The notes below the pieces were generated by a model, which was not told the origin of the DNA, did no database searches, and saw only the letters and a list, made by a program, of their open reading frames with translations. A stretch of DNA of 64,000 nt, from sequence record NC_054916.1, one strand, 5' to 3'. Positions within the stretch are counted from its first letter, which is position 1. Every line of letters starts with the position of its first letter. The position numbers and the translations under genes are program-made. This document shows, one piece after another, positions 155-9,140 of the stretch. The stretch comes from Escherichia phage vB_EcoM-G28.

Positions 155-742
155 TCATTGCATTCCGATTACGAAAAACTGTGGACGAGTAATACCACCA
201 ATACAACATTTAATATTACAGCAGCAGTGTACAGTGTCAATATGGACACTATAAATCTTATCCATATCAGGAGATTTGACAGGCTCATCAATTATATACA
301 AAATTCGCGAAAGCGATAAACCTCTGAACTTACTTCCTTTATTACCAATAAAACTGCGTACAGAATCAGTAAATAAACGAAAACGTATATCATCATTAGA
401 ATAACGCGAAAATTCCTTTTTGATGTTATTTGCAGAAATTTTAGCATAAGCTGAAGTATTAGAAAGAACAATAACTGTTCCGCCATCATACAACCAATTA
501 GCAGCGAAGTTAGTCACAGCAATTGATTTACCGGATTGACGTCCACCATCTAGTCGAAGTGTGCAATACTGTTTAAGTAAGTCTTCAAATGGCGGGATAT
601 ATTCGTTTTTACAAATTTCTTCTACTCTAGCATCAGAATGGTGTGTAAAAGCATTCATCAGGGATAGATAAGGACCAGTTAAAAATGTTCTCATTTTGTT
701 CTCTCTAGGTTTGGGCCATTCCATGGCGCATGAATTGTCCAT
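155..742 (-). CDS. Hypothetical P-loop NTPase-like protein (Walker A DGGRQSGKS, Walker B-like ILYIIDE); true start probably the internal Met at 694
   Basis: Six-frame ORF; Walker A/B motifs read directly from the translation; sits in the ipII/ipIII-equivalent slot beside e. Cys-rich odd C-terminus (HCCCNIKCC) could indicate a frame problem. Confidence 0.45.
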   Translation of the reverse strand: MDNSCAMEWPKPRENKMRTFLTGPYLSLMNAFTHHSDARVEEICKNEYIPPFEDLLKQYCTLRLDGGRQSGKSIAVTNFAANWLYDGGTVIVLSNTSAYAKISANNIKKEFSRYSNDDIRFRLFTDSVRSFIGNKGSKFRGLSLSRILYIIDEPVKSPDMDKIYSVHIDTVHCCCNIKCCIGGITRPQFFVIGMQ

Positions 743-835
743 TTCTGTATTTACCCATTACCGCACTTGGGCTCGACCTTATTACAGGTTGGCGGGAATC
801 CCTTATAGAATCATAAGGTCCAGGTTGTTCCCATA

Positions 836-1309
836 TTATTTGAACGATTTAACGTACTGAATAGAACCTTTACTATTTACAAAGGCAATTTTACCATTTT
901 TATTATACATGGTAGCAGTACGTTGATAGCCATAAGTTTGTTTACCAGATTGATAACCAACTAATGCGAAATTATCTTCACCCATTTTATTCTGTTTAGC
1001 GCGAATGCGTTCATGACCATGTGCCATAAGAACCTTAGCATCACCAGTTGCAATGGATCGACGAGTTTTTTCATCTTCAACTGTATTAACAAAGTCGTCA
1101 AATGAATCAAATTTAGCATGAGATTTATTATACAATTTTCCATCTACTGCATAATTATATCCCTGTACATCCATCTCAACTTCTGTACCATCATCCAATA
1201 CAGCAGTGATTTTTTGACCTTTTTTAAATTTCAAAAGATCAGTAAAAGATTCAGCAATAATTTGAGAATTAATAGCTGCTTCAGTGATAAATTCTTGATA
1301 TGTTTTCAT
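836..1309 (-). CDS. Internal head protein (IP family) with N-terminal capsid-targeting sequence MKTYQEFITEA
   Basis: N-terminus matches the T4 IP capsid-targeting sequence (MKTYQEFIAE) including an I-x-E gp21 cleavage motif; position next to e equals the T4 ipIII/ipII locus; length 157 aa differs from my recollection of T4 IPII/IPIII. Confidence 0.65.
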   Translation of the reverse strand: MKTYQEFITEAAINSQIIAESFTDLLKFKKGQKITAVLDDGTEVEMDVQGYNYAVDGKLYNKSHAKFDSFDDFVNTVEDEKTRRSIATGDAKVLMAHGHERIRAKQNKMGEDNFALVGYQSGKQTYGYQRTATMYNKNGKIAFVNSKGSIQYVKSFK

Positions 1310-1363
1310 ATATTTCCTTTAAATATTTTAATTAGCAATTTGTCTCTTCAAGCAACTGTGAAT

Positions 1364-1393
1364 ATACTATCACAATTCTAGGAGAAAGTAAAC
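1364..1393 (-). promoter_or_regulatory. Early-type sigma70 promoter (-35 GTTTAC, 18-nt spacer, -10 TACTAT) upstream of the IP gene
   Basis: Reverse complement reads GTTTAC...TAGTAT with canonical spacing; same motif recurs upstream of other minus-strand early genes. Confidence 0.5.
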
Positions 1394-1397
1394 AACT

Positions 1398-2366
<969 letters not shown>

Positions 2367-5592: not shown

Positions 5593-5862
5593 TTATTTGA
5601 TTTGTTTAGCAGACCAAATGCGGTCTTTAATAATTTTTTGGATGTCTTCAACATACTCAAGAGAGTGAACATGTGGATTATCTTTGAAACTATAGGCACG
5701 GGCTAACTTTTGGCCTTCGGTTTTGATTACTAAAAGCTCTTTAAGGATAGCTTCATACTTAGCGATAATTCCTTTAACAATATTTTTTTTCTTGTGTAGC
5801 TTTAGGATCTGCTTTAGGAGCAGGTTTACCCGAAGCCTTTGCAAAAGCAGCGCCAGTAGCAA
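5593..5862 (-). CDS. Hypothetical ORF; no in-frame ATG after the upstream stop, possibly joined to the 5774-6067 ORF by slippage at an A8 run
   Basis: C-terminal 60 residues look protein-like; N-terminal part overlaps the neighbouring ORF out of frame. Confidence 0.3.
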   Translation of the reverse strand: MLLALLLQRLRVNLLLKQILKLHKKKNIVKGIIAKYEAILKELLVIKTEGQKLARAYSFKDNPHVHSLEYVEDIQKIIKDRIWSAKQIK

Positions 5863-6067
5863 CTAGACTTTTCCAGGCCATACTAACCGCATTTCCCGTA
5901 AATCCTTCTGCTTTCATGTCGCGAGCAAATTGGAATCGTGATTCGTCAGAAGCATCTTTATAGGAATATTTACCCGCTGCAATGGCTGCTTTTGCAACAG
6001 CTTGAATTTCGGTGCTAGATGCTTCATTTAACACCGCTTCATTTAAAAATTGAGCATATGATTTCAT
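5774..6067 (-). CDS. IP-like small protein with capsid-targeting-like N-terminus MKSYAQFLNEA
   Basis: N-terminus resembles the IP capsid-targeting sequence with L-x-E cleavage motifs; own TATAAATA late promoter 37 nt upstream. Confidence 0.5.
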   Translation of the reverse strand: MKSYAQFLNEAVLNEASSTEIQAVAKAAIAAGKYSYKDASDESRFQFARDMKAEGFTGNAVSMAWKSLVATGAAFAKASGKPAPKADPKATQEKKYC

Positions 6068-6103: not shown

Positions 6104-6111
6104 TATTTATA
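6104..6111 (-). promoter_or_regulatory. Late promoter box TATAAATA
   Basis: Reverse complement of tatttata immediately downstream of the tRNA-cluster terminator. Confidence 0.55.
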
Positions 6112-8849: not shown

Positions 8850-9140
8850 TTACAAAAGATTTTTAGCAATAATCTTGAGATGTGCCGCAGAAATGTGTTT
8901 AGCTTTAAACAACGCAGTTTCTTCAGCAGGAGAGATAACGATTGTAGCACCATCCTTTTTAGCAGACCACCCATCACCTAGGTAAACAGTACCTTTGATT
9001 TCTTCGCCATCAACCAGACTAATCATTGGTTTACCTTCTCGTCCTTTATTTGCTTTAATAACTTCAGAAGTAAGAGTAGCTTCGGTAATGGTAGAAACCG
9101 GGGTAGTTGTAGTAGAAGTAAATTCTTTAAATGTTTTCAT
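8850..9140 (-). CDS. ipI: Internal protein I (IPI-like), 96 aa
   Basis: Position between tRNA region and 57B; body of the protein matches my recollection of T4 IPI; N-terminus MKTFKEF... is capsid-targeting-like. Confidence 0.75.
   Translation of the reverse strand: MKTFKEFTSTTTTPVSTITEATLTSEVIKANKGREGKPMISLVDGEEIKGTVYLGDGWSAKKDGATIVISPAEETALFKAKHISAAHLKIIAKNLL

Follow-up and report, generated by a model that had tools for sequence, protein, structure and literature searches.

The gene between the lysozyme gene e and vs.8 in Escherichia phage vB_EcoM-G28 raises two questions: is its product a new internal protein (IP) of the T4 type, and what might that product do in the infected cell? We analysed a 64,000-nucleotide stretch of the genome (sequence record NC_054916.1), referred to here as the window. 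The open reading frame (ORF) at 836..1309 (minus strand) starts with ATG and has 157 codons and a stop, with the N-terminus MKTYQEFITEAAINS. A sequence-only reading had placed a 157-aa ORF at these coordinates, and the ORF list and the sequence itself agree. That reading took the protein for a new IP with an intact capsid-targeting sequence (CTS), lying beside e, and proposed it as a candidate anti-defence effector.

The protein is not new. Pfam places it in DUF7412 (PF24183), with a full-length match (positions 1-157 of 158, E 6e-96) whose 319.4 bits far exceed the curated cutoff of 27. The PHROG match is to family 3155, "internal virion protein" (E 6e-102). Proteins of T2, RB3, RB18 and RB33 are 100% identical to that of the window, and UniProt Q38388, "Ip4" of phage K3, shares 99% identity and gives a TM score of 0.94 (BFVD entry). 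The name Ip4 or ipIV is already used in the records of ime09, Kha5h, RB14 and K3, and ipIV appears also in a 2025 preprint on T2. An NCBIfam search returned noise only (17 bits, where the cutoff is 300), and a PDB sequence search for remote homology of the body gave no match below E 0.5. As judged from these matches, the ORF is the known, named gene Ip4, with Pfam and PHROG families of its own. The claim of novelty therefore falls, and as a discovery the gene carries little weight, being long named, covered by family models and identical in T2. The order e-Ip4-vs.8 is the ordinary T2 type of arrangement in a Tequatrovirus genome, and its nearest relatives share about 96% identity with the window across the first 6 kb.

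Ip4 is widespread among T4-like phages. A tblastn search places it in 469 phage records, of which 289 show at least 99% identity; IPIII occurs in 261. T4-like phages, among them those of Klebsiella, Salmonella and Serratia, have homologues that are 61-82% identical. When 1.84 billion protein representatives were searched with a profile, seven matches came back, all phage Ip4-like proteins or fragments of them; by this measure (7 representatives among 1.8 billion proteins) the family is restricted to T4-like phages. Beyond the close T4-like group, the same search recovered three distant members with 34-36% identity. These carry another leader type, MNFxxFLNE|S (the bar marks the cleavage position), and either adjoin a denV-like gene or sit near a ValRS-modifier gene. 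Since the distant members retain a leader and the denV/vs neighbourhood, the pairing of leader and body, and the locus, are old. One database fragment (P0020, 39 aa) is identical to Ip4 for 30 residues and then runs out of frame; the break follows ...LLKFKK and falls at an A-rich stretch, AAAAAAGGTCAAAAAA. According to the T2 preprint, none of five populations had slippage variants at the ipIV repeat.

The N-terminus carries the hallmark of a packaged IP. Residues 1-10, MKTYQEFITE (1280..1309, minus strand), form a CTS of the MKTYQEF(I/L)xE type that ends in the cleavage motif I-T-E. The first 11 residues match MKTYQEFIAEA of T4 IPII and IPIII at 10 of 11 positions, and the DNA-level homology runs through the leader; the CTS and I-x-E motif read from the sequence were thus correctly recognized. 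In a six-frame search of the window, a relaxed CTS pattern, M[KRN]x[YFW]xxF in ORFs of at least 40 aa, found three ORFs only: Ip4, Ip1 and one further gene, all on the minus strand and in known IP regions. Because the pattern is rare in the window and the T4 DNA identity is 92% over 217 nt, the leader match reflects descent rather than chance.

Removal of the leader would fall to the prohead protease gp21. Its gene is present in the same phage (38121..38756, plus strand) and encodes a protein 99.5% identical to T4 gp21 over 212 aa. Cleavage is predicted at I-T-E|A, where E10 is invariant across 12 Ip4 family members. In T4, IPIII is annotated as a precursor numbered -10 to 183 (record X04567), with a loss of exactly 10 residues. 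Cutting Ip4 after Glu10 would leave a product of about 16.5 kDa with a pI of about 9.1, basic like IPI*, IPII* and IPIII*. A second hydrophobic-x-E motif, I18-A19-E20 (1250..1258, minus strand), was considered as a secondary gp21 site, with E20 invariant as well. A virion peptide of a Klebsiella orthologue, R.LATVGVMTESVGSNLLK.F, spans this site uncut, which weakens the case; the motif would be used at most partly.

How does the locus differ from that of T4? The adjoining ORF upstream (1398..1892, minus strand) is 97% identical to T4 lysozyme and matches Pfam Phage_lysozyme, so the position beside e is as the sequence-only reading described it; going further upstream, nudE comes after e. Alignment of the window with T4 DNA (blastn) gives 92% identity over a 217-nt block that takes in the 3' end of e, the intergenic region and the first ~32 nt of Ip4. 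The homology stops within the leader, at window position 1278, and restarts at 836, on the first base of the stop codon of Ip4. The T4 counterpart of position 836 is the base that directly follows the denV stop, 30 nt before T4 vs.8. Between these borders lies an Ip4-specific cassette (837..1277, minus strand) without DNA homology to T4. By this alignment, a body of about 440 nt replaces the ~1.4-kb ipIII-ipII-denV segment of T4, and ipII, ipIII and denV (endonuclease V, UV repair) are absent from the entire 64-kb window. Ip4 thus sits between e and vs.8, in the first of the two variable IP loci (e-denV-vs.8 and 57B-tRNA), and T2, ASO78A and Bas43 have the same cassette placement. We propose that the gene was acquired as a cassette, through recombination in the conserved promoter/leader region at one border and immediately before vs.8 at the other.

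The right edge of the swap is marked by the vs.8 homologue (155..742, minus strand; 92% identical to T4 vs.8 residues 26-219; PHROG 1488). Within the vs.8 region (155..806, minus strand) the T4 ATG start reads ATA, and the first ~40 residues of T4 vs.8 align in another frame than the remainder, which implies a later gene start than in T4. The homologue, a protein of no assigned function, has a weak P-loop or terminase-N-like signature, GGRQSGKS. A protein of Klebsiella phage ValerieMcCarty03, gp125 (L010 4561..5142), is annotated as "putative IpIII internal head protein" and is without the leader. By eye it resembles the vs.8-like P-loop protein, and the IpIII label is likely a misannotation in the public record.

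The region upstream of Ip4 is shared with T4 as well. At 1352..1393 (minus strand) lies an early-promoter/stem-loop (PeSL)-like element, TTTACT and TAGTAT separated by 17 nt, with an overlapping hairpin AGAATTGTGA...TCACAGTT. The motif is conserved in the T4 e-ipIII spacer, within the 92% block of 217 nt, and in the T4 ipIII-ipII spacer (73%); in ASO78A, the closest relative, it is annotated as a T4 early-promoter match. By its sequence the element fits the PeSL cassette type, for which the PST/T4 consensus is TTTACW-N17-TAYWAT; such cassettes have been put forward as a means by which T4-type phages shuffle modules (PMC4122927). Folding of the hairpin compared with shuffled sequences is not significant (z = -1.2), and conservation is its sole support. 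A pattern search for the exact T4 late promoter TATAAATA found none between e and Ip4 and one upstream of e (1919..1926, minus strand), from which late read-through into Ip4 is likely.

Two further genes in the window bear on the IP repertoire. Ip1 (8850..9140, minus strand), the second intact internal protein, is 99% identical to T4 IPI, a GmrSD inhibitor in T4, and matches Pfam IPI_T4 at E 7.5e-54; it adjoins 57B and has one extra Thr relative to T4. The G28 set is Ip1 and Ip4, not the Ip1, Ip2 and Ip3 of T4. A third leader-bearing gene (5593..6067, minus strand; MKSYAQFLNEA..., PHROG 2280, a family without assigned function) is preceded by an exact late promoter, TATAAATA, 37 nt upstream at 6104..6111 (minus strand), and looks from its sequence to be a further candidate internal protein that has no name. 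ASO78A and Bas43 carry it intact (157 aa); it is 97 aa long in the window, where a run of eight A (GAAAAAAAATA vs GAGAAAAATA) shifts the frame and truncates the protein. The frameshift could be real, homopolymer slippage or a sequencing error.

Published virion data bear on packaging through an orthologue. The Ip4 orthologues of Klebsiella phages ValerieMcCarty03 and ValerieMcCarty04, gp127 and gp119, lie beside lysozyme and are 69.8% identical over the full length. In CsCl-purified virions of the two phages they gave 66 and 66 PSMs (PMC13119998). By occurrence counts in the raw table, the peptides cover residue 13 onward and the leader peptide TYQEFLNESR is unmatched. Absence from virions had been named beforehand as an outcome that would count against the IP assignment; for the Klebsiella orthologue, to which this answer is confined, the protein is present. 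The structure predicted for Ip4 by AF2 has residues 1-20 disordered or at low confidence and a body with mean pLDDT 83.8 and pTM 0.78, concordant in five models. The mature protein is modelled as a small SH3-like beta-barrel with a helical insert.

What, then, would Ip4 do? T4 IPs are injected with the DNA, and Ip1, Ip2 and Ip3 each inhibit one different GmrSD type IV enzyme, without cross-protection (PMC12373910). The CTS protein Bas37_0260 inhibits McrBC (bioRxiv 10.1101/2025.11.20.689424), and all four characterised CTS proteins are inhibitors of type IV restriction enzymes. Taken as a whole, the best explanation is that Ip4 is packaged, cut by gp21 and injected, that it most probably blocks a host defence, and that its gene arrived as a cassette; we give this a probability of about 55%. 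Our analysis or cited data show which family the protein belongs to, its leader, the gene for gp21, where the cassette begins and ends, and the presence of an orthologue in virions. For Ip4 in G28 we infer the cleavage position, injection and the anti-defence role, as follows. The 10-residue leader would target Ip4 to the prohead's scaffolding core, where gp21 would cut after Glu10 (I-T-E|A) and release the basic ~16.5-kDa protein. The mature form would remain in the filled head and enter the cell with the DNA. There it would most probably bind and block a host nuclease or other early-acting defence that attacks the hydroxymethylcytosine-containing or glucosylated DNA of T-even phages. We regard Ip4 as probably an injected, stoichiometric inhibitor of a defence, the target being probably another modification-dependent nuclease.

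The target would be none of the GmrSD variants tried so far. Silas et al. 2025 tested ip4-10 against an active GmrSD panel and saw no reproducible inhibition (PMC12373910); their "ip4" is equated here with the window protein from the common name alone. T2, with an identical Ip4, is still restricted by GmrSD-ECOR21 and GmrSD-ECOR17 (PMC12373910). The proposal of an anti-defence candidate thus stands as a reasonable analogy, but it was already on the field's list and the GmrSD screen of ip4-10 was negative. Literature searches found no functional study of Ip4. We suggest, tentatively and well short of even odds, that Ip4 inhibits a non-GmrSD defence that is widespread in Enterobacteriaceae, either a modification-dependent nuclease or another early-acting system. 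Such a target would explain the negative GmrSD panel, and also why Ip4 is the commonest T4-like IP across Escherichia, Klebsiella, Salmonella, Serratia and Yersinia hosts. Once found, the target would add one more pair to the arms race between T-even phages and Enterobacteriaceae, and could aid the choice or engineering of therapeutic T4-like phages for restricting hosts.

The main rival is that Ip4 is chiefly bulk core or filler, building the prohead core or neutralising DNA instead of IPII and IPIII and having no specific target. Several observations suit this: Ip4 occupies the genomic slot of IPIII behind the IPIII regulatory region, ipII and ipIII are missing within the window, and the protein is basic like IPII* and IPIII*. 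The 66 PSMs show the orthologue to be abundant in virions, the 61-82% identity marks strong conservation between phage genera, and the GmrSD screen was negative. However, basic character, abundance and conservation (87-92% in Klebsiella phages) are traits of IPII and IPIII too, and each of these targets a specific GmrSD. Bas37, moreover, lacks any IP gene at the e locus, so an IP is not structurally required there. We consider a chiefly filler role a real but minority possibility, and on the unlikely side.

Could Ip4 instead be an injected enzyme, one that modifies some component of the host in the way Alt does, and not a stoichiometric inhibitor? The close family does keep the motifs GYNY, GKLYNKSHAKF, GEDNFAL and YGYQRT, together with two invariant His. 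Both His and the acidic residues of GEDNF are missing in the distant homologues (P0015-P0017), and an enzymatic role argued from the invariant His and Asp was rejected on that account. Pfam, NCBIfam and PDB give no match to an enzyme family, and the predicted fold is a small beta-barrel. An enzyme is accordingly improbable.

Even less probable is that the leader is a relic of recombination and Ip4 an unpackaged, cytoplasmic early protein. The early-type promoter directly upstream, and the absence of an exact late promoter between e and Ip4, would fit such a protein, but T4 ipIII is preceded by that same region. Conservation of the leader and of E10 extends through the whole family, distant members with the other leader type included, and the orthologue is present in purified virions.

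Least credible of all, and already refuted by the alignments, is an ordinary diverged orthologue of IPIII or IPII: position beside e, leader and upstream region are all shared with IPIII, but the similarity of the bodies is not significant, the Pfam and PHROG families are distinct, and Klebsiella phages have Ip4 alongside IPII and/or IPIII. With the first 12 residues removed, pairwise BLASTP of the Ip4 body gave E 29 for IPI, 0.03 for IPII and 2.4 for IPIII, so Ip4 has no detectable body homology to any of the three T4 proteins. DUF7412 is its sole Pfam match, with IPI_T4 (PF11634) unmatched. Other PHROG IP families reach about E 0.008 at best with no stretch significant alone, and where the match could be localised it covers the N-terminal leader only. 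The sequence-only reading was right that the body is unlike IPII or IPIII; the ordinary IPIII orthologue, which it had named as the finding that would overturn it, is ruled out.

Among known systems, the closest are the Ip4/ipIV proteins of T2, K3, RB14, RB3, RB18, RB33 and ime09, which are 99-100% identical, equal in length and encoded in the same e/denV/vs.8 region; nothing substantial sets them apart, though some, such as ime09, have denV and another small IP between e and Ip4. T4 IPIII (Ip3), which inhibits the two-gene GmrSD of ECOR17, shares with Ip4 the slot beside e, the promoter/stem-loop and ribosome-binding region, the leader (10 of 11 residues) and the basic character of the mature form. 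Its body is unrelated, and T2, which has Ip4 without Ip3, is restricted by GmrSD-ECOR17. T4 IPI* (PF11634), an inhibitor of the GmrSD of E. coli CT596, belongs to the same packaged, gp21-processed and injected class; it differs in its 19-residue leader MKTFKEF...ITE|A, its 57B-tRNA locus and its unrelated body. Bas37_0260 of phage KarlGJung, the McrBC inhibitor, has the leader MKTYQEFIAE, of the same type as Ip4. It is not Ip4: it is 77 aa long with an unrelated body, has only the leader in common, belongs to the ipI locus and is absent from the window, and Bas37 is without Ip4. Its activity against McrBC shows that IP targets reach past GmrSD to other type IV enzymes.
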